Shown here one piece after another: positions 3,044 through 37,726 of a stretch of DNA of 64,000 nt. Location: contig CBDCCI010000002.1 in assembly GCA_965214705.1 (NCBI GenBank), positions 448,001 to 512,000 of the forward strand, written 5' to 3'. The translations under genes were made by a program, and so were the position numbers. Origin of the DNA: Alphaproteobacteria bacterium (GTDB lineage: Bacteria; Pseudomonadota; Alphaproteobacteria; UBA828). How positions within the stretch are numbered: position 1 is the stretch's first letter; each line of letters begins with the position of its first letter. The notes below the pieces were generated by a model. It made no database searches. It worked only from the letters and a program-made list of their open reading frames with translations, and was not told the DNA's origin.

Positions 3044-6000
3044 ATGCTGCGGGATCGCGAATGGCGGCTCAAATACACTGCCGAGGACGGCGATCTCGTC
3101 CGGCTGTTCTACATCCCGGCGCTTGAGGACGCGGAGCGCTACGATCGGCTGACCGGGTATTTCAACGCGGGCGCCCTGGCACTCGCTGCGCGCGGCATCG
3201 AAGGTCTGGTGCGAAACGACGGTCGCATGAGGCTCGTCGTCGGCTGTACCCTGGACCCGCCGGAGATCGACGCGATCGAGCGGGGCGAGCAACTCCGCAG
3301 CCTCGTCGAAAGGCGCCTGACCGGCTTTCCGCTTGCCCCGCCCGATCCGGCGTCGGCCGGCGCGCTTGAACTGCTGGCGTGGATGGTCGCGCGCGGATTC
3401 CTTGAAGTGAAGGTCGCCGTCCCTTGCGACGCGGCCGGCACGCCGGTCGCGGAGGACGGCATCTTTCACGAGAAGACCGGGATCGTCGAGGATCGGGTCG
3501 GCGACCGGCTCGCATGGTCGGGGAGCCTGAACGAGACCGGCGCCGGCTGGCGGAGCAACTGGGAGAGCATCGGCGTCTATACCAGTTGGGGACCCGAGCC
3601 CGGACGTGTCGATGAGGAGGAAACGAACTTCGCGCGCATCTGGGCCGGAAAGGCGAAGCGCGTGATCGTGATGGACGTGCCGGAGGCGGCACGCCGGGAT
3701 CTGATGCGCTTCATGCCGGCAACGGACATGCCGGCCCAACTTGAACCGAAGTCGGGCGACGAGCCGTCGGAGCGGTCCGTTGGCGATGCCGGGCCCCCGC
3801 CGCTTCCGGCCACGACTCCTGCTGCGCCGCCGAAGGGTGACTTGCGGGGCCGGGTCTGGAGATTCATTCGGGAGGCGCCGTCGCGTGCGCACGGCGGCGA
3901 GCGGGTCGGCGAGGCGACCGCGGCGGTCGATCCCTGGCCGCATCAGGCGAGGGCTTTCGAGCGCCTGTACGGCGACTGGCCGCCGAGGCTCCTGATTGCG
4001 GACGAGGTGGGGCTCGGCAAGACCGTCCAGGCGGGCATGCTGCTGCGCCAGGCTTGGCTCGCCGAACGCACCAGGCGCATCCTGGTGCTCACGCCCAAGG
4101 CCGTGCTCCGCCAATGGCAGATCGAACTGCGGGAGAAGTTCAACCTCAACTGGCCGATCTACGACGGCGGCAAGCTGACATGGTATCCGTCGCCGGCGAT
4201 GAGGGGCCGTGACGAGCGCGAGGCCGGACGCGGGGACTGGCATCGCGAGCCCGCCGTGATCGCGTCGAGCCAGTTGATGCGCCGGAGCGATCGCGTAGCG
4301 GAGCTCCTCGAACGGGCGGAGCCGTGGGATCTGGTGGTGCTCGACGAGGCGCATCACGCGCGGCGGCGCGGCGCGGGCAGCCAGCGCGACGGCGGGCCCA
4401 ACACGCTGCTCAGGCTGATGCGGGGCCTGAAGGACCGCACGGCGGGGCTGGTCCTGCTGACCGCGACGCCGATGCAGGTACACCCCATAGAGGTCTGGGA
4501 CCTGCTCGACCTGCTGGGTTTGCCGCCCGAATGGACATCGAAGGCGTTTCTCGAGTTCTTCGACAATGTCGATCAGCCGAGCCCCTCGGCGGAGGCGTTG
4601 GAGCGGATGGCTTCGCTATTCAAGGCGGCGGAGCGTGCCTACGGCGAGTTCGAGATTTCCGATGCGCAGCGCATGACGGGGCTGTCCCGGCTGAAGGTCA
4701 AAAGGGTTCTCAGTGCGTTGCGCGACGCGGCGAGCATTCCACGCCGGCAACTGGAGACCGCTGAACGACGGGCGGCAGTCGACATCATGCGTGCGGGGGC
4801 GCCGATACGCAGGCTGGTCTCGAGGAACACCCGCGAACTGCTTCGGCGCTACTTCCAGAAAGGAATGATGACCACGCCGGTCGCGGAGCGTCAGGTAGAG
4901 GATTGCTTCCTGGAGGTGTCGGACGCGGAACGCGGCATCTACGACGCGGTCGAGGACTACATCGCCGGCGCGTACAGCCGCGCGAGCGGCAAGGAGCGCA
5001 CGGCCGTAGGGTTCGTCATGACGGTCTACCGCCGACGGCTCGCCAGCAGCTTCGTGGCGCTGCGCGAGACGCTGCAGAAGCGCCGCGCCGCGATCGATGA
5101 CGGGGGACGCTCGGAACTGTTCGGCCTCGACGAGGACCTCCCGGACGACGAAGCCGCGGATGAAGCGGCCGATCCCGACGAGGCGGCAAGACTCGAACGG
5201 AGCGCCCTCGCCCACGAACAGAAAGCCGAGATCGACGGTCTGCTCGGCGCGATCGGCCGCCTGCCGCCGGACAGCAAGCTCGGCAGCCTCAAGGACGTTC
5301 TGCGCGAACTGCGCCGGGCGGGCTACGGCCAGGCGATGGTGTTCACCCAGTACACCGATACCATGGACTTCCTGCGCGAGGCGCTGGTCGAAGACGGCGA
5401 ATGGCGGCTGCTCTGCTTCTCCGGGCGCGGCGGCGAAGCGCCTGGAGCGGACGGCGCGTGGCGCACTATCGGCAGGGACGATGCGAAACGGCGGTTCCGG
5501 GACCGGGAAGCCGACGTGCTGCTGTGCACCGACGCGGCGGCCGAGGGCCTGAACTTCCAGTTCTGCGGCGCGCTGGTGAATTACGACATGCCGTGGAACC
5601 CCATGCGGGTGGAGCAGCGCATCGGACGCATCGACCGGTTGGGTCAGAAGCACGCGACCATCCGCATCATCAACCTGCACTACGAGGGGACGGTGGAAAC
5701 CGATATCTACCGCGCTCTCCGGGATCGCATCGGCCTCTTCCAGTCCGTGGTGGGGCCGCTGCAGCCAATTCTTGCCCGTTTGCCCGGGAGAATTTCGCAG
5801 TGCGTGCTTGCCGGCAAAGGCCGTGACGCTCGCGAGCGCGCAAATCTCGTCGATACCATCGAACGCGAGGCGAACGAACGCCGCGACTCGGGGTTCAATA
5901 TCGACGCGATAACGGAGAGCGATCTCGCCATGCCGGAGCGTCTGCCGTCGACCGTCACCATGGAGGACCTGGACCGAATAGTCGGATCCGGCGATCTCAT

Positions 6001-6239: not shown

Positions 6240-7413
6240 TCGATGTGGGAACGGTTTCGGGCCTGATGTCGGCGGCGTGAACCGGGCGAGCGAAGACTTG
6301 GGCAATCGGAATCGAACAGGAGGCTACTGCGATCACACTGTCCTTCGTGTTGCTCGGCGCGTAGATTGCACGCCGATCGGCGCGATAAGCTATTGAAGTG
6401 GCTTGATACTAGGGGGTCACAATTGCACCCCGAGCAACACTCTCGACCGAGAGGTGCGCGTCCTGTGCTGCTACGAGGGCTTCTGGCTGGCTCGCTGGCT
6501 GGAACAGAAGATGTCCATCGAGACGGTGGTGCTCGATCCGGCGAGCCTGTTGGTGAACCGGAAGGCGAAGCAGCGCAAGACGGATCGGATCGATGCGAAG
6601 AAGATGGTGCGCGCCCTTCTCGCCCATGACCGGGGTGACGCCGCAGTGCTGAGCCGTGTGCGGGTTCCGAGCGTCGAGGAGGAGGATCGCAAGCGGCTGC
6701 TTCGCGAGCGTCGGCGCCTGGTGAAGGAGCGGACCTCGCTGACCAACTCGATCAAGGGGCTGCTGAAACTGCACGGCATCTTCCACTTGAACCCTCGTCT
6801 CAAAGCCTTTGAGGCGCAGTTCGCCGAGTTGATGACCGCGTGCGGCTCGCCGCTCCCGCCGCTAGCACGGCAGGAGATCGAGCGGCTCAAAGAGCGACTG
6901 TCCCTCGTGGAGCGGCAGATCGCAGAGGTCGAGGCCGAGCGAGATGGAGTCGCGAAGACGGGTGCGGAGTTCTCGATCGCGGACGCGCCGGAAGGCAGCA
7001 ACGAACAGGCGGCGGCGAAGATTGCAACGCTGACCCGGCTGAAGGGGATCGGTGAGAACGACGCGACTGTGCTCACCCATGAGATCTTCTACCGCGGCTT
7101 CCGCAATCGCCGCGAGCTCGCGGCCTGGGTCGGCGTGACGCCCGCGCCTTGGGCGAGCGGGAACACTCAGCGGGACCAGGGGATCGGCCGAGATGGCCCC
7201 GGCTGGATCCGGCAGCAGCTCATCCAAATGGCCTGGCGATGGTTGCAACATCAGCCCGAGAGCGCGCTCTCGATATGGTTTGAAGATCGCACTGCAGGAG
7301 CGCGAGGGCGGATACGCCGGGTGATGATCGTCGCTCTCGCCCGGAAGCTGCTGATCGCTCTCTGGCGGTTCTCCGAAACCGGTCTCGTGCCGACAGGCGC
7401 CAAGCTTGTCTGA
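6240..7413 (+). pseudogene. IS110/IS1111-family transposase with degenerate 5' end
   Basis: YEGFWL, KTDRIDA and WASG motifs; the N-terminal AKTWAIGI segment (~6290) is separated from the main ORF by a stop and indels; left boundary uncertain. Confidence 0.85.
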
Positions 7414-7749
7414 CCGCGAGACCTCATCATTCCAGTGCAGTCGGACGCGGCTGGCACTGGGCCGGGTGGCGAGTGACCGGGTATTCGCTGGGCTGAAAGA
7501 CGCCGTAAATCAGAGTGGTCCCGCCTCCGGAACGCTGCGCCCGCAGCAAGCGGGATTGGGGGACGGATCCGGCACACCCTTGCCGGCAACCGCCCGGATA
7601 AGAGCTTGGTATGCGCACTTGAGGCGCGACCGGTGCAAGAAGCGTTCGACCCGGTGGCGAAAGCGACTAGCGATCCTGCCAACTCAGAGGAGGCGAGGCA
7701 TGTGATAGCCAGCGCTAGCCTTCTGACTTGACCCAGACAGCCCCATAAG
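7414..7749 (+). ncRNA. IS1111 downstream non-coding region (putative bridge/seek RNA) and right end
   Basis: About 335-nt NCR sharing motifs with 36989-37333 (TCGGACGCG, GTGACCG, GGTCCCGCCTCC, CCGGATAAGAG); ends CCCCAT-AAG. Confidence 0.7.
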
Positions 7750-7912
7750 AGCAAATAAGCGCACTATTCGACAGTCATCAACACCGAGTGCAAACTGAGT
7801 CCCCGAACCTGTTCTTCAATTCGCAACCAACTACCGCTCCAAGAGCGATATTGTAAGACGGCAATTGACCTATCTACACTCTTTCGCGCGTGGCGCTCAT
7901 TTTCGCCTACAT

Positions 7913-31513: not shown

Positions 31514-32172
31514 ATGTCGCTGGGACAGACACTAACCAGATTCTTGAACTCCCTTCAAGGCGATCTCTTCCCGTGGCTTGAGGAGGAGCTCGGGCCACTC
31601 GGCGAGAGGTATCGGCGCTTCGTCACTGTGCTTGAGTTTGCGCGGGTCGAGAGCTTCCTTCCCCATTTTCATGGCCTGCCCGGTCGGCCGGTCGAGGACC
31701 GTGCGGCGCTGGCGCGCGCCTTCATCGCCAAGGCGGTGTTCGACGTACCCACGACACGCGCGCTGATCGAGCGCCTTGAGGTCGACAAGACGTTGCGCCG
31801 ATTGTGCGGCTGGAACTATGCCGGAGAAGTGCCGAGCGAGGCGACCTTTTCACGGGCCTTCGCCGAGTTCTCCGAGAGTGCCCTGCCCGCACGCCTGCAC
31901 GAGGCGCTGATCAAGCAGACCCTCGGCGACCACTTGGTGGGGCATGTCTCGCGCGATTCGACGGCGGTCGAGGCGCGCGAGAAGCCTCAGCGCAAACGCA
32001 AGAAGGAGAAGCCGAAGCGCAAGCGCGGTCGCCCGCGCAAGGGTGAGGAGCGGCCCAAGGAGCAGCGCCGCGTGGAGCGCCAGCTCGACATGACCCTGCC
32101 GCAGATGCTCGACGATCTGCCCAGAGCCTGCGATGTCGGCACCAAGCGAAACGCCAAGGGCCACACCACGTC
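31514..32172 (+). pseudogene. DDE transposase, N-terminal half
   Basis: PSEATFSRAF, SRDSTAVE, GTKRNAKGHTTS; continues in frame at 61276. Confidence 0.9.
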
Positions 32173-32291
32173 ACGCACCTGCGGTGCTAACTATCTGACA
32201 AAGGGTCGTTTTCTCTCCTCCACATTGTTGCATCCGGACGGATCCGTCAACTCCCGGTTCCCTGGCTGCAACCGAAACCGGGAGAGGGGAG

Positions 32292-33416
32292 ATGCCCAGA
32301 ACCCACCTTACGGACGCCCGCGTCCGCGCGCTCAAGCCCCGCAAGACCGCATACGACATTCGCGACGGCAAGCTCAGGGGGGTCGGCCTCCGCGTGCTGC
32401 CCTCAGGCGCCAAGCGCTTCTTCGTCCACTGCCAGCATCGTGGCGAGCGCGTCTGGAAGATCATAGGCGATGCCGCCACCATGGATGTCCGCGAGGCGCG
32501 ATCGCGCGCGGTGGCCATGCTCGCCGCGATCCGTCTGGGCGAGGACCCGCCACGCGATCCCGCCGAGACTCGCTTCGAGGCCATCGCCGAGGCCGCGTTC
32601 GAGCGCCGCAGCCGGCTTTGGAAGGCGGGAACGCTGGCGGTGAACCGGGGCTACCTGCGAAGACAGATACTCCCGCACTTCGCGGGACGGCAGATCGCCG
32701 ACATCGACAGCCGGGACGTCGCCAACTGGTTCGCCTCGCTGCGCGCCACCCCGGTCGCCGCAGACCGGTCCATGCCGGTGCTCTCCGTCATCATGCGCGA
32801 GGCCGAGGCGATGAGGCTCAGGCCCGAGGGCTCGAACCCGTGCAAGGGCATCCGGCGCTACCGCCGCAAGGGGCGCGAGCGCTTCCTGTCGGACGATGAG
32901 ATCCGCCGCTTGTCGGCGGCACTCACGGCCCTTGAGGGGCTGCATCCAGAGCAGGTCGCGGTCGTGCGCCTCCTCCTGCTGACCGGATGCCGGAAGGGCG
33001 AAATCCTGACGCTGCGCTGGTCCGACTACCGAGAGGGGCGCCTGTTCCTCCGTGACTCGAAGACGGGCCCCCGAACCGTCTGGCTGTCCGAGCCGGCCAG
33101 GAACATTCTCGACGCCCTGGAGCGAAAGGACCGCTGGGTGTTTCCCTCGTGCCGGACGGCAGGCCCGCAGGGCAACAACTGGCTGGACCGGTTCTGGTGG
33201 AAGCTCCGCGCCGAGGCGGAGCTGGAGGACGTTCGTCTCCACGACCTCCGCCACACCCATGCCAGCATCGCCCTGCGCGAGGGAGAGACCGTGCTCGCCA
33301 TCGGCCGGCTGCTCGGCCATGCCAGCCCGGAGACGACCCTCAAGTACACGCACCTCAGCGACGCCATGACGATGGAAGCCGCCGAAATCGTCGGCGCCGT
33401 GCTGGAAGGAAACTGA
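32292..33416 (+). CDS. Tyrosine recombinase/integrase (pair 2, first gene)
   Basis: Catalytic R, HxxR, H and Y motifs. Confidence 0.92.
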   Translation: MPRTHLTDARVRALKPRKTAYDIRDGKLRGVGLRVLPSGAKRFFVHCQHRGERVWKIIGDAATMDVREARSRAVAMLAAIRLGEDPPRDPAETRFEAIAEAAFERRSRLWKAGTLAVNRGYLRRQILPHFAGRQIADIDSRDVANWFASLRATPVAADRSMPVLSVIMREAEAMRLRPEGSNPCKGIRRYRRKGRERFLSDDEIRRLSAALTALEGLHPEQVAVVRLLLLTGCRKGEILTLRWSDYREGRLFLRDSKTGPRTVWLSEPARNILDALERKDRWVFPSCRTAGPQGNNWLDRFWWKLRAEAELEDVRLHDLRHTHASIALREGETVLAIGRLLGHASPETTLKYTHLSDAMTMEAAEIVGAVLEGN

Positions 33417-33419
33417 TCG

Positions 33420-34565
33420 ATGGCCGGCAGGGAACGCATGCGGCTGACCGACGCCTCCGTCGAACGCCTCCGTCCGCGAGAACGGGAATTCACCGTCTGG
33501 GACGACCGCACCCCCGGTCTCGGGGTCCGGGTCCGGCCCGGCGGCGGGAAGAGCTATGTGTGGTTGCAGCGATCCGGCGGGCGCTCGAAACGCATCTCCC
33601 TGGGTCCGGTGTCGCTCAGGACCGTCGCAGAGGCTCGCCGGGATTGCCTCGCGCGGCAGCTCGCCCCGGAGCCCGACAGGGAGAGCGTGCCCAGGCGCCG
33701 CGCCCCCTCGTTCCGGGAGTTCGTCGAGGGCGAGTGGAAGGACGCGCATTTCCAGCGCTACAAGCCCTCCACGAAAAAGGGGCACCGCTCACTCCTTGCG
33801 AGGCAGCTGTTGCCGAAGTTCGGGTCGATCCCGCTCGACCGCATTGCCTCCACGCGGGTCAGGCGGTGGTTCGAGGCGTATAGCCGGACCGCTCCCGGCA
33901 ATGCCAATCACAGCCTCGACGTCCTCCGCCAGATCATGAACTTCGCCATCGCGCGCGGCCATGCCGATGCCAACCCGACCGCAGGCATCCAGCCCAACCG
34001 CCGGCCGGAGCTCACACGCTTCCTCTCCCGCGAGGAGATCGCCCGTCTCCACAGGGCGCTCAACGGGCAAGCCGGACGGAGGAACCGCCAGCAGGCCGAC
34101 GTGATCCGGCTCCTGCTGCTGACCGGCTGCCGCAGGGGCGAGATCGTGCGCCTGCGCTGGTCCGAGGTCCAGGGCGACACGCTCATGTTGGCCGACAGCA
34201 AGACCGGTCCCCGGAAGGTCCCTCTCAATTCGCAGGCCCGGCGCATTCTCGAACGGCAGCCTCGGGGAGAGAGTCCGTTCGTGTTTCCGTCGCCGCGCGA
34301 TCCGTCCCGGCCGCGCCACCCCGACCTCAACCTTTGGTACCGGGTCCGGAAGGAAGCCGGCATCGACGATGTGCGCCTCCACGACCTCCGGCACACCGTG
34401 GCCAGCCAGGCGGTGATGAACGGCGTTCCGGTGCCGGTGGTGTCCCGGCTGCTCGGCCACTCCAATGTCCGAATGACCCTGCGCTACGCTCACCTCGGAG
34501 ACCGCGATATCGAACGGGCCGCCGAGAGGGTGGGTCAGGCCATCGCCAGGAGAATGGAGCGGTAG
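33420..34565 (+). CDS. Tyrosine recombinase/integrase (pair 2, second gene)
   Basis: Catalytic R, HxxR, H and Y motifs. Confidence 0.92.
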   Translation: MAGRERMRLTDASVERLRPREREFTVWDDRTPGLGVRVRPGGGKSYVWLQRSGGRSKRISLGPVSLRTVAEARRDCLARQLAPEPDRESVPRRRAPSFREFVEGEWKDAHFQRYKPSTKKGHRSLLARQLLPKFGSIPLDRIASTRVRRWFEAYSRTAPGNANHSLDVLRQIMNFAIARGHADANPTAGIQPNRRPELTRFLSREEIARLHRALNGQAGRRNRQQADVIRLLLLTGCRRGEIVRLRWSEVQGDTLMLADSKTGPRKVPLNSQARRILERQPRGESPFVFPSPRDPSRPRHPDLNLWYRVRKEAGIDDVRLHDLRHTVASQAVMNGVPVPVVSRLLGHSNVRMTLRYAHLGDRDIERAAERVGQAIARRMER

Positions 34566-34699: not shown

Positions 34700-35009
34700 T
34701 GCTCCGCGGCCGTTTTCTCCAGAGCCAGACGCCATCGGTGATGTCTGTGCGCGCACCGTGCATTGCCCGGCCTTCGCCACCGTGCAGGGCATGATCCGCC
34801 TCGCCGACGACCATGGTGGCGATCGCCTCGACGCACTCTGCGCCGAGGCCCTCGACCTCAACCGCCTCGCCTCGGGCTTCCTCAGGGAGCGCGTCAAGAA
34901 CGGCGGCGAGCCCGATCCGCCGCGCCCCGAGCACGACGAGACCATCCCCAGCCACGGCAACATCCGCGGTGGCGACTACTACGGCAACAACGGAGGAGCG
35001 ACACCATGA
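34700..35009 (+). pseudogene. istA: IS21 IstA C-terminal fragment
   Basis: HGNIRGGDYY C-terminal signature; stop overlaps the istB start (ATGA). Confidence 0.8.
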
Positions 35010-35791
35010 CGCTGCGACAACCCAACATCGACCGCCTGCTGCAGCTCGGTCTCAGCGGCATGGCCGAGGCCCTGGAGGAACAGCGCGACATCGCCGACGT
35101 CGACCAGCTCGGCTTCAACGACCGCCTCGCCCTGATGATCGAGCGCGAGGCCGAACACCGCGATCACAAAAGCTATCTCGGCCACCTGCGCCAAGCCCAG
35201 TTGCGCATCCGCGCCGACATTCAGGACGTCGACTGCCGCGCGGGGCGCGGCATCGCCCGGACCACGCTCACCCAGCTCGCCGCCGGCGACTGGATCCGCC
35301 AGGGCCACAATCTGATTCTGGGTGGGCCAACCGGGTCGGGAAAGACGTTCGTCGCTTGCGCGCTCGCCCACCAGGCCTGCCGCCAGCACCAGTCCGTCCT
35401 CTATCGCCGCGTGCCTGAGCTGGTCGCCGCCCTCATCCGCGCCCGCGACAAGGGCACGCTCGAGCGCCTGATGGGCCGCCTGGGCAGGGTCTCCCTGCTG
35501 GTGCTCGACGACTGGGGCCTCCAGGGCTTCTCCGCCGAGGGCCGGCGCGACCTGCTGGAGATCGTCGAGCAGCGCCACGGACGCAAGTCCATCCTCATCG
35601 CCAGCCAGATCCCCGTAGACGGCTGGCCGAAGGTGATCGGCGAGCCGACGATCGCGGACGCGGTCCTCGACCGCATCGTCCACAGATACCATGAGCCGGT
35701 TGCTTCGACTCGACTTCGAGTGGTTCGAGGCACCCGGAGAGAAGGCCCCCACCTTCTCTCCGGGAGGAACCGTCAACAACGGAGTGGACGA

Positions 35792-36988
35792 ATGTCAGAC
35801 TATCCAAGCACGACCGCGCTGACAGGCGCGAGGCATAGCACGGTTTACGTTGCTGTGGAGATCAGTCTCAAATCGTGGATTGTGGGAATGCATTGCCCGG
35901 ACGCTTCGGGCGGCTGCATCAGCATCCACAAGCTGGCCACTGCGGACACGGCCGGACTGGTTGAGCTTGCTGGGTCGGTGCGGGAGCGGGTGGCGAGGGA
36001 GCTGGGTGCGCGTCCGCGAGTGATGCTGACCTACGAGGCGGGCTACGAGGGGTTCTGGCTGGCCCGGGACATCGAGCGCCGAGACGCGGAGATCGAAATC
36101 TTCATGAACGATCCGGCGAGCCTGCAGGTGAACCGCCGCGCCAAGAGGAAGAAGACCGATCGGATCGACACGAGGAAGATGCTTCGCGCCCTGAAGGCGT
36201 GGGACCAGGGCGATTCGGAGGCCATGTCCTGGGTACGAGTGCCGGCAGTGGACCGGGAGGACGACAAGCGCCTGCTGCGCGAGAGGGAGACGTTGATCGT
36301 TGAGCGCACGCGCCTCAACAATCGGATCAGGGGGCTGTTGATGCTGCACGGCATCTTCGACCTGGCGCCGCGCCGAGCGGACTTCCTGGATCGGCTTGCA
36401 GCCGCGCGGACCGGCTATGGAGCGCCTTTGCCGCCGCGGGCGCGGGCCGAGATCGAGAGGGCGGTCGCGGTGCTTCGTCTGGTTGAGGCTCATATCGACA
36501 CGATCGAGGCCGAGAAGAAGGCCCTGCTGAAGGCCGGCCGGAAAGCCGTGGACGCGCCGAACCGGGACGGGACGGCGGTGATCGCGGCGCTCACGCGGAT
36601 CCACGGCATCGGCCTCAACGATGCGACGCTGCTGGCCGGCGAGGTGTTTTATCGGGACTTCCGCAATCGGCGCGAGCTGGGCAGTTGGGCCGGCTTGACA
36701 TCGGTACCGTGGGCGAGCGGCGGGGTCGATCACGATCTCGGCATCAGCAAGGCCGGCCCCTCGCACATCAGGAAGCACATGATCCAGATGTCGTGGCGCT
36801 GGTTGAAGCTGCAACCGGAAAGCGGGATCACGAAGTGGTTCCATGCCTATGTCGCCAGAGCTGCCAATGGTGGCAGGGACAAGCGCGCCAGGAAGCGCGC
36901 GATCGTCGGCGTCGCGCGCAAGCTTCTGATCGCGCTGTGGCGCTACGCCACCCAGGGGCTGGTGCCGGAGGGCGCCATCGTCTCGTGA
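35792..36988 (+). CDS. IS110-family recombinase
   Basis: VEISLKSW, YEAGYEGFWL, KTDRID, WASG. Confidence 0.92.
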   Translation: MSDYPSTTALTGARHSTVYVAVEISLKSWIVGMHCPDASGGCISIHKLATADTAGLVELAGSVRERVARELGARPRVMLTYEAGYEGFWLARDIERRDAEIEIFMNDPASLQVNRRAKRKKTDRIDTRKMLRALKAWDQGDSEAMSWVRVPAVDREDDKRLLRERETLIVERTRLNNRIRGLLMLHGIFDLAPRRADFLDRLAAARTGYGAPLPPRARAEIERAVAVLRLVEAHIDTIEAEKKALLKAGRKAVDAPNRDGTAVIAALTRIHGIGLNDATLLAGEVFYRDFRNRRELGSWAGLTSVPWASGGVDHDLGISKAGPSHIRKHMIQMSWRWLKLQPESGITKWFHAYVARAANGGRDKRARKRAIVGVARKLLIALWRYATQGLVPEGAIVS

Positions 36989-37330
36989 CGGCGTTGGCCG
37001 AACGAGAAGGAGACAACACGAGGTTCCGACGCGGTCGGACGCGACCGCGGAGGATGCCGGGCAAGGCGTGTGACCGAATAGGCGTTGGGTTGCCGAATGG
37101 CACCGTTCCATAGATGGGTCCCGCCTCCCGGAACGTCGCGACCGCCTGGATGCGGTATTGGGGTCGCGGAGCCGGCGAGAGCCGGAGCTCCGAACCGGAT
37201 AAGAGTTGAGCAGCGTGACGAGCCGCTGCGTGGAAAAGACGTTCTGCCTGGACATCGGCCGCGGATGCGAGTGGGGAGATCACGAATGCCATTCACGTAA
37301 ATGAAGTCGGGCCTTGCAGAGAGAGCTCAT
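36989..37330 (+). ncRNA. Putative bridge/seek RNA
   Basis: NCR contains ATAGGCGTTG (37078-37087), the reverse complement of the reconstructed target CAACGCCTAT. Confidence 0.75.
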
Positions 37331-37680
37331 AAGACGCCTATCGCATCGAGCTCAAGGGAGAGTCCCAGCGCAAGCGCAACAAGCCCCCGCCACTCGACGG
37401 CGGCGGCAACAGAGCCCCGGCCTGACGGCCGGGGTCCATGGGCGCCTGCGGCGCCTTCCGGGTTGCGAGGCCGGTGGCGCGCGGCGGCATGCTGTGTGTG
37501 AGAGCTTGCCGCCGCGCCCCGCCGGCCGTTTGCATGCCCAAGAGGCCTCGCATACGCTCGGCTCGGGCTGGCCAAAGGCCAGCCCCCCGACATCACCAAG
37601 GGGAGGGTCACACCGCCAAATCCGGGAGAGACAGCGCGCTGGCGCGCGCCTGCGCCACGGTCAAGTGTTGCCAGAATCCC

Positions 37681-37726
37681 GGTCAAATAAAATCAGAATC
37701 GGCGGTCAAATAAACCGGAATCCGCA
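37681..37726 (+). repeat. IS21 right end
   Basis: Two GGTCAAATAAA-N-GAATC repeats terminating in CA. Confidence 0.75.

Follow-up and report, generated by a model that had tools for sequence, protein, structure and literature searches.

The window analysed here is a stretch of 64,000 nucleotides (nt) from the genome of an alphaproteobacterium of the UBA828 lineage (contig CBDCCI010000002.1, positions 448,001 to 512,000). As assembled, window positions 35685-37333 hold a 1649-nt insertion sequence (IS) of the IS110 family, which starts with GATACC, ends with CATAAG and is composed of a 107-nt left end, a gene for a recombinase of 398 amino acids (aa) and a 345-nt right end. The element interrupts the istB gene of an IS21 copy. 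It is very probably an IS110-family IS in the wide sense, whose DEDD/serine recombinase is directed by a guide RNA of ~190 nt, encoded in the right end, both to the target and to the element's own ends. Insertion guided by a bridge or seek RNA is an already known mechanism, of which the element is a new example that comes with a natural series of guide swaps. Its anatomy, its conserved fold, and the match of its guides and their co-variation with flanks and ends are established at the level of sequence. By analogy with IS621, ISCro4 and ISEc11, the guide would act as an RNA bound to the recombinase, a circle would serve as the donor and a promoter would lie across the circle junction. The element and its host gene comprise the following features:

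35006..35684, + strand: 5′ part of istB (IstB residues ~1-226), in a 5′-truncated IS21 copy; Pfam PF01695 IstB_IS21, E=1.7e-55, profile positions 3-218 of 238
35685..37333, + strand: IS110-family element as assembled, delimited by its flanks and by unoccupied sites; 18 full-length copies in the genome
35685..35690, + strand: left terminal extension GATACC, proposed partner of the donor guide GGUAUU; relatives with the end GATCCT have GGGAUU (A-U to C-G change)
35691..35696, + strand: left subterminal inverted repeat ATGAGC, read from the sequence; pairs with GCTCAT at 37325-37330
35792..36988, + strand: uninterrupted recombinase gene, 398 aa; NCBIfam NF033542, Pfam PF02371
37314..37319, + strand: -35-like hexamer TTGCAG, 15 nt from the canonical right end; its partner is the -10-like TACCAT at 35687-35692
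37325..37330, + strand: right subterminal inverted repeat GCTCAT, read from the sequence
37334..37425, + strand: 3′ part of istB (..NAYRIELKGESQRKR..stop), from the sequence reading and the unoccupied copies

The element, its recombinase and its istB site

Removal of positions 35685-37333 restores GTCCACAACGCCTAT, as the preliminary description had claimed, and this is the sequence of unoccupied istB genes of the same IS21 type in the genome, which read GTCCACA^ACGCCTAT (the caret marks a junction). The restored site is matched exactly at C3:1422131-1422160 and, with one change further right, at C1:4120300-4120329; together, these two unoccupied copies read CGTCCACAACGCCTA(T/C)CG. The flanks of the window copy are gtccaca^GATACC...CATAAG^acgcctat, and the insertion would have occurred after the CA of GTCCACA^ACGCC, within the part of istB of one IS21 type that encodes the IstB C-terminus, in one orientation and with no target duplication. 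Occupied and unoccupied sites compared for the window copy and four relatives (the IS91-type site described below, L003, L065 and L064) indicate site- and orientation-specific insertion without target duplication, under a common rule in which the unit GAT(A/C)C...CATAA(G/A)A is inserted after ...CA. The canonical unit in relatives is 1650 nt long and ends with CATAAGA.

The target was described beforehand as a conserved IS21 istB motif. It is indeed specific to one IS21 type, but of 300 other genomes in the class, 10 contain its exact 14-mer (the unpublished G286 and G088 among them) and 6 the reversed control, so it is not broadly conserved as DNA.

The recombinase scores 163.5 bits over residues 49-389 against NF033542, "IS110 family RNA-guided transposase" (cutoff 140), and 42.9 bits against PF02371 (cutoff 21.3, E=6e-11). 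A phmmer search of the PDB sequences with the single recombinase sequence returned no match, while a profile built from 25 relatives finds ISCro4 (E=8e-8) and IS621 (E=8e-6) through the C-terminal domain. S309-G310 is invariant in these 25 relatives and is aligned in the profile with the SG of ISCro4 and IS621, as would be expected of the catalytic serine. E23, E82, D123 and D126 are likewise invariant and fit an E-E-D-D version of the RuvC-like DEDD domain; we take them to correspond to the equivalent residues of IS621. Related elements were collected from 61 genomes, 13 of which gave a match at E<=1e-40, and a separate search of genome contigs gave three loci. In all, the recombinase has ~5000 homologues.

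The right-end RNA and its target guides

In the proposed mechanism, the recombinase would be directed by an RNA of ~190 nt encoded at ~37060-37250, which contains two domains. Positions 37077-37087 of the target domain would pair with the top strand of CA^ACGCCTAT, and positions 37106-37112 with the bottom strand of GTCCACA^. In the donor domain, GGUAUU (37154-37159) and AUAAGAG (37199-37205) would recognise the joined ends of the circle, with CATAAGA^GATACC as the predicted junction. The right-end features are:

37025..37054, + strand: hairpin directly after the stop codon, predicted by folding
37064..37126, + strand: predicted target-binding domain; outer stem 37064-37075/37117-37126 around an internal loop and a capping hairpin (37086-37105), with compensatory changes at alignment pairs 36/94 and 42/90
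37077..37087, + strand: 5′ loop strand AAUAGGCGUUG, putative right-target guide, complementary to the target top strand CA^ACGCCTAT(T)
37106..37112, + strand: 3′ loop strand UUCCAUA, putative left-target guide; reads in the sense of the left flank GTCCACA and so would have the bottom strand as its pairing partner
37113..37115, + strand: GAU after the left-target guide, equal to the first bases of the IS left end; GA(U/A/G) in 18/18 aligned relatives
37129..37246, + strand: predicted donor-binding domain, closed by the long-range stem 37129-37137/37238-37246; pairs 107/222 and 108/221 change from U-A to C-G in 9 and 7 of 18 sequences
37154..37159, + strand: GGUAUU, complement (one G-U) of the left end GATACC; partly overlaps the hairpin 37141-37145/37152-37156
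37199..37205, + strand: AUAAGAG, same-sense match to the right end ATAAGA and, in its last base, to the G that begins the left end; AUAAAAG with CATAAAA ends, AUGUGAG with the CATGTGA end

The fold was derived from an alignment of 18 right ends, in which the 33 modelled pairs amount to 594 cells. These are paired in 98.5% of cases, seven pairs are changed on both sides, and the covariation score was reached by none of 500 shuffles; slid controls pair 33-48%. The window copy keeps all 33 pairs. G-U occupies 39 cells, which on the opposite strand would read A-C; this assigns the fold to the recombinase-sense strand. For the 201-nt core, the folding energy is -96.5 kcal/mol (z = -2.2; equalled by 3 of 200 shuffles). 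In the target domain, the outer stem is followed by a variable 5′ strand of 11 nt, the capping hairpin and a variable 3′ strand of 7 nt. The preliminary description had assigned four motifs of this non-coding region as guides, either to the target or to the element's own ends: ATAGGCGTTG at 37078-37087, TCCATA at 37107-37112, GGTATT at 37154-37159 and ATAAG at 37199-37203. All four are present at these positions and fall in variable single-stranded parts of the fold or at their edges. The right end would thus provide a structured RNA with loop strands complementary to both target strands, whose guide matches overlap at CA on the target.

The same plan is found in relatives with 52-57% protein identity from this and sister genomes, in a metagenome-assembled relative at 85%, and in a relic. 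The relic, L024 (G000:C2:623309-623587), is a solitary 280-nt right end, 94% identical to the window copy, and carries a third guide pair, AGCATGAGTTG and TCATACA; its right flank matches in part. Another relative lies in the window itself at 6469-7900; it is 5′-truncated, 57% identical over residues 84-395, with an RNA domain at 7436-7655, its own guide pair (GGTATTCGCTG and TAAATCA) and the right end CCCCATAAGA. In L062 (G004:C1), the RNA domain is present as two tandem copies, at 2690-2909 and 3089-3308, 399 nt apart, with guides that fit the flanks poorly (3/8).

The 10-nt reverse-complement match on which attention had first centred is by itself weak evidence and only modestly unlikely: when the 345-nt right end was shuffled 5000 times with its dinucleotides preserved, 111 shuffles had a match of at least 10 nt to the 30-nt restored site. 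The case for guides rests on context, because the motifs sit in the variable parts of a conserved fold and change with the flanks. This is best seen among the copies in the genome (three contigs, 7.9 Mb), 18 of which are full-length, the window copy included; the remaining 17 are paralogues at 86-88% identity, of which 13 have one and the same sequence. The window right end reads GACCG-AATAGGCGTTG-GG ... CACCG-TTCCATA-GATGGG and that of the paralogues GACCG-GGCAAGAGTTG-GG ... CACCG-TTCTACA-GATGGG. The scaffold is thus nearly constant, and the differences reach 7/11 positions in the 5′ strand and 2/7 in the 3′ strand. The paralogue 5′ strand, GGCAAGAGUUG, matches CA^ACTC(T/C)TGCC. The left flank is CTCTTCA in 16 of the 17 paralogues; after CATAAG, the right flank is AACTCCTGCC in 14 and TACTCCTGCC in one (together (A/T)ACTCCTGCC); of the other two, one is inserted elsewhere and one continues into a partial copy in tandem. 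Among the unoccupied sites, 75 read CTCTTCA^ACTCCTGCC and one reads CTCTTCAGAACTCC. As the paralogue target is CTCTTCAACTCCTGCC versus GTCCACAACGCCTAT for the window copy, guide and target are swapped alike, and the swapped guide bases follow the swapped target. Occupied paralogues show at least three flank haplotypes that are also present among unoccupied copies, so it is likely that they stem from more than one insertion event.

The agreement between guides and flanks was scored over every element with placeable ends, misfits (L062, L028 on its right flank, L003 on its left) included. In the 3′ strand, the first 5 nt agree with the element's own left flank at 47/60 positions (12 elements; mean of 2.1/5 for cross-pairs), and the 5′ strand agrees with its own right flank at a mean of 7.0/8 positions (17 elements; 4.3 for cross-pairs). 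Neither sum was reached in any of 20,000 permutations, a figure that overstates independence because the tested relatives are kin. The agreement is visible by eye in L037 (guide CCCCACA, left flank CCCCACA) and L064 (GCGGACA, GCGGACA). Altogether, the earlier claim that the non-coding region carries guides for the target and for the element's own ends is borne out by the conserved fold, the paralogue guide swaps, the permutation test over 17 relatives and the co-variation of the donor ends described below.

Beyond the kinship of the tested relatives, several observations count against this interpretation. The N-terminal PF01548 domain scores 21.8 bits, under its cutoff of 29. The first acidic position of the presumed tetrad is a glutamate, E23 (..VAVEIS.., window 35858-35860), invariant in the 25 relatives; a published alignment shows aspartate at this position in other IS110-family proteins (..GMDVHK..). 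A scan of 35500-37500 against Rfam 15 at E<=1 gave no family. The register of the 5′ strand relative to the right flank shifts by 1-2 nt between relatives, so the pairing scheme and the crossover dinucleotide given here are tentative. GGUAUU overlaps the predicted hairpin by 3 nt. The window guide is carried by a single copy in the genome, and no second copy with this guide was found either as an exact 24-mer in metagenome contigs or, in 43 further genomes belonging to the family, as a 20-mer (0 in each case). Two cognate istB sites in the genome lack the IS. Finally, the right junction reads CATAAG^ACGCC in place of the CATAAGA^ACGCC predicted by the unit rule, i.e., it is one A short.

Junctions, donor ends and alternative explanations

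The last three points lead to the alternative that survives best, namely that the guide RNA is real but the window copy is stranded: loss of one base would shift the right flank, and the RNA could no longer align both junctions for excision. The CATAAG^ACGCC junction, the single copy despite two free cognate istB sites and the truncation of the host IS21 itself all speak for this possibility. However, the recombinase reading frame and all modelled RNA pairs are intact, and the missing A is itself in question. At 37330-37336, the sequence may be either CATAAGACGCC or CATAAGAACGCC, the latter being the version without the loss of the A. The left junction is confirmed by contigs from four DNA runs, all of one study. 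For the right junction, one mismatch-free short-read contig over 37241-37358 is one letter longer than the window, at a position that was not reported, so the missing A may be an assembly error as well as a real lesion. Copy-out routes proposed for IS110 elements (in the covered part of bioRxiv 10.1101/2025.10.25.684509) might also tolerate the defect. We consider a stranded copy possible, though on balance unlikely. The statement that the element is an intact recombinase unit thus applies to its reading frame and RNA pairs, but not to its right junction, nor does it sit easily with the two unoccupied cognate sites.

Recognition of the element's own ends by the RNA is suggested by co-variation. 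All left ends found begin with GAT; the window clade combines GATACC with GGUAUU, and a diverged clade GATCCT with GGGAUU, an A-U to C-G change. At the right end, the G/A position of CATAA(G/A)A agrees with that of AUAA(G/A)AG in 20/20 elements whose right end was found, and the ISRel9-family element on plasmid pTiAF3.44, which ends with CATGTGA, has AUGUGAG and guides that match its flanks. The seventh base of AUAAGAG, a G, is the first base of the left end, which fits the circle junction CATAAGA^GATACC. The second loop would thus be complementary to the joined ends, with co-variation at one left-end position and one or two right-end positions that represents few independent events; the 5-6-nt donor matches are individually within chance. 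The donor guide is followed by a G and a second base; this second base is G in four elements, precisely those with a right flank beginning GG. The two bases after each left guide (GA, from the GAU at 37113-37115, on the target side; G plus this base on the donor side) would resemble the handshake dinucleotides of IS621, the donor-side part again coming from few independent events.

It could be argued that only the target loop is functional, as in a seekRNA in the narrow sense, the donor segments being structural or coincidental and the ends being read by the protein via the subterminal repeats. The donor matches span just 6 and 7 nt, one of them overlaps a hairpin, the ends vary little, with co-variation from few events, and seekRNAs of 82-96 nt with target matches alone suffice for ISEc11, as described in the covered part of PMC11187229. 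This explanation appears improbable, given that each of three right ends (CATAAGA, CATAAAA and CATGTGA) comes with a matching RNA segment, that A or C in the left end goes with U or G in the RNA, and that conservation extends to the donor domain, whose closing stem has two pairs with full compensation. Far less probable still is a guide that acts in the form of single-stranded DNA from the element end, like those of IS200/IS605: sequence cannot separate an RNA from the DNA strand of the same sense, yet the protein belongs to a family with demonstrated RNA guides (PMC11187229 and PMC11208160, as far as covered), and the guides are embedded in a structured domain of ~190 nt, 130-255 nt inward of the end. 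That the matches arose by chance or from captured target DNA in an ordinary untranslated region is scarcely credible: the probability of a single 10-nt match (~0.02) and a full right end that barely folds better than its shuffles (z = -1.61) are compatible with it, but it is already contradicted by the paralogue guide swaps, the guide-flank tests (0/20,000 permutations) and the fold covariation, as well as by the confinement of variable segments to two loop strands of a conserved fold and by the opposite sense of the two guide halves, as needed to read both DNA strands.

If an RNA-guided recombinase uses the circle as donor, its junction may also carry a promoter. The preliminary description placed TTGCAG and TACCAT 16 bp apart in the circle; this is correct for the element as assembled, but the spacing is 17 bp with the canonical CATAAGA end. 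The hexamers match the sigma-70 consensus at 3/6 and 4/6 positions, so to judge by sequence the promoter would be weak; relatives have TTGACA or TTGACT at a similar distance. A promoter scan of the integrated element found no promoter-like site.

Read as a 2-nt crossover, the donor dinucleotide is AG; the target dinucleotide is AA for the window clade and AG for most members of the diverged clade. In every copy, the left junction shows AG and the right one AA (TA in one case), which top-strand information by itself would produce. A shared 2-nt core as in IS621 was considered and rejected, as it failed to fit all junctions and the register between 5′ guide and right flank varies by 1-2 nt. At G000:C1:3005614-3005640, one of the IS91-type target copies is two bases longer (AG or GA), reading CTCTTCAGAACTCC. 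It may be the footprint of an imprecise excision, as expected from recombination between the AGA repeats at both IS junctions.

Landing sites and relation to known systems

Guide variants in this one genome reach the IstB C-terminal motif (window copy), the IstB Walker-A box, an IS91-type zinc finger and an IS110-type recombinase gene. The main paralogue target is the zinc-finger coding part (..SCRNRHCP..) of an IS91-type Y2 transposase gene, with 16 occupied sites and 76 without the IS; this gene sits in a ~2.7-kb element encoding a tyrosine integrase and the Y2 transposase, present in ~99 copies (e.g., G000:C1:4600-7700, L068). The L003 copy occupies the segment that encodes the Walker-A box in a second type of istB, and the L065 group is found inside another IS110-type recombinase gene. 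On plasmid NZ_CP072169.1, L075 (369383-372286), annotated as ISRel9 family and with the same RNA plan, adjoins an istB gene on the opposite strand, making istB a landing site for three guide sets of the clade. No report of an IS110-type element targeting istB was found in the literature searched, supplements being covered in part.

Several of these loci are themselves rearranged. Three paralogous copies are split by a ~2.75-kb element with terminal inverted repeats, present in 40 copies in the genome (G000:C2:518995-523403, C3:687404-691812 and C3:1713792-1718200). At G000:C1:1873054-1874866, a paralogue is followed by a second, partial right end (IS positions 1485-1649) in place of the right half of the target. 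The IS21 copy in the window is a remnant, with homology to intact copies limited to 34770-37724 minus the IS; an intact reference in L070 encodes an IstA of 532 aa and an IstB of 258 aa. A ~2.4-kb repeat at window 32172-34557 (~20 copies, 77-93% identical), which includes a phage-type integrase gene (33420-34565), stops ~200 nt before the start of the IS21 homology and may have truncated the IS21. The istB frame is open across the 107-nt left end into the recombinase (window 34763-36988), and the genome's own gene call is a 660-aa IstB-recombinase fusion (P0002, PF01695 and PF02371). This open frame may be due to chance in a G+C-rich genome.

A broader proposal, which we regard as distinctly doubtful, is that the ISRel9-like clade with its 3′ bridge RNA is specialised for homing into coding motifs of other elements' transposition genes, and that top-strand information alone is inherited. 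The second part is suggested by the constant outcome at the mismatched crossover (target AA, donor AG) and, if true, would speak for top-strand transfer or a copy-out route as the natural mechanism. Were target choice selected for such homing, the family would be a reprogrammable parasite, or a controller, of rival mobile elements. In any case, RNA-guided elements that land inside the transposition genes of other mobile elements bear on competition in IS-rich genomes. In this single genome, a scaffold that hardly changes carries at least five guide sets, four of which have both occupied and unoccupied sites; they belong to a clade of ISRel9-like recombinases of ~395-400 aa. The series is a ready guide code for trying a new family of orthologues in programmable recombination, covering the correspondence of loop positions to flank bases, the handshake-like dinucleotides and the tolerance of a one-base core mismatch.

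Comparisons with published systems refer here to the portions of the cited papers that were covered. The preliminary description had called the element IS1111. Its organisation is indeed IS1111-like, with a short left end (107 nt), a long right end carrying the RNA (345 nt), a subterminal inverted repeat, and a top-strand guide 5′ of the bottom-strand guide, but its recombinase groups with ISRel9, ISMno20 and ISAzs35 and not with the IS1111 core. Instead of the 330-350 aa of that tight cluster, it has 398 aa. Subterminal repeats of IS1111 elements are given as 7-17 bp in PMC11208160 and 11-13 bp in PMC11187229, with extensions of 7 or 6 nt on the left and 3 nt on the right; the window repeat ATGAGC/GCTCAT has only 6 bp (8 bp in relatives, TATGAGGC/TATGGGGC), with extensions of 6 nt on the left and 3-4 nt on the right. 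The nearest named relatives are ISRel9, ISMno20 and ISAzs35, which fall into one cluster, with 38% identity to genes annotated "IS110-like element ISRel9 family transposase". In the published matrix of PMC11187229, these three are ~20-22% identical to ISPst6-type (core IS1111) members and are placed after the IS621/ISCro4 block. On account of the 6-bp repeat, the 398-aa recombinase and its ISRel9-type kin, the element is filed under the IS110 family in the wide sense, with an IS1111-like organisation as judged from its sequence.

Among these ISfinder-named relatives, the pTiAF3.44 element shares the right-end RNA plan and matching guides and abuts istB, but its ends are GATCCC...CATGTGA and its identity is only 38%. 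No published description of a guide RNA of ISRel9, ISMno20 or ISAzs35 was found in the literature searched, which covered supplements in part. Other site-specific members of the wide family target the terminal repeat of another mobile element, whereas the window copy targets a coding motif. In a tblastn search that gave 340 plasmid records, the ten commonest genera include none from the enterobacteria, an indirect sign that the recombinases targeting terminal repeats are not detectably similar.

The IS1111-type seekRNA elements ISEc11, ISPa11 and ISKpn4 (Siddiquee et al. 2024, PMC11187229) have in common with the window element a long non-coding stretch that follows the recombinase gene, the guide order, target matches that overlap (here at CA), asymmetric extensions (here 6 nt left and 3-4 nt right), the lack of target duplication, and natural redirection among relatives, as between ISEc11 and ISXne4. 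The guide order and 3′ location reported for IS1111-type seekRNAs (PMC11187229) and bridge RNAs (PMC11208160) equal those found here. Unlike the window element, the seekRNA elements have recombinases of 330-350 aa and repeats of 11-13 bp, and the window element has a clear second domain that matches the donor.

IS621 and ISCro4 (Durrant et al. 2024, PMC11208160; Hiraizumi et al. 2026, PMC13626964) resemble the window element in their two-domain RNA, each loop of which reads both DNA strands, in the handshake-like dinucleotides after the left guides, which match the partner DNA, in the presumed combination of DEDD and serine recombinase and, by analogy, in the circle donor and the junction-spanning promoter that the window element would use. 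The likeness of the proteins was found by profile only, in the C-terminal domain. The window RNA differs in that it lies in the right end and not in the left, the order of its loop strands is reversed, and its donor domain is predicted to be multi-branched in place of a simple stem-loop. The crossover bases also differ, being AG in the donor and AA in the target of the window clade, whereas IS621 has CT in both.

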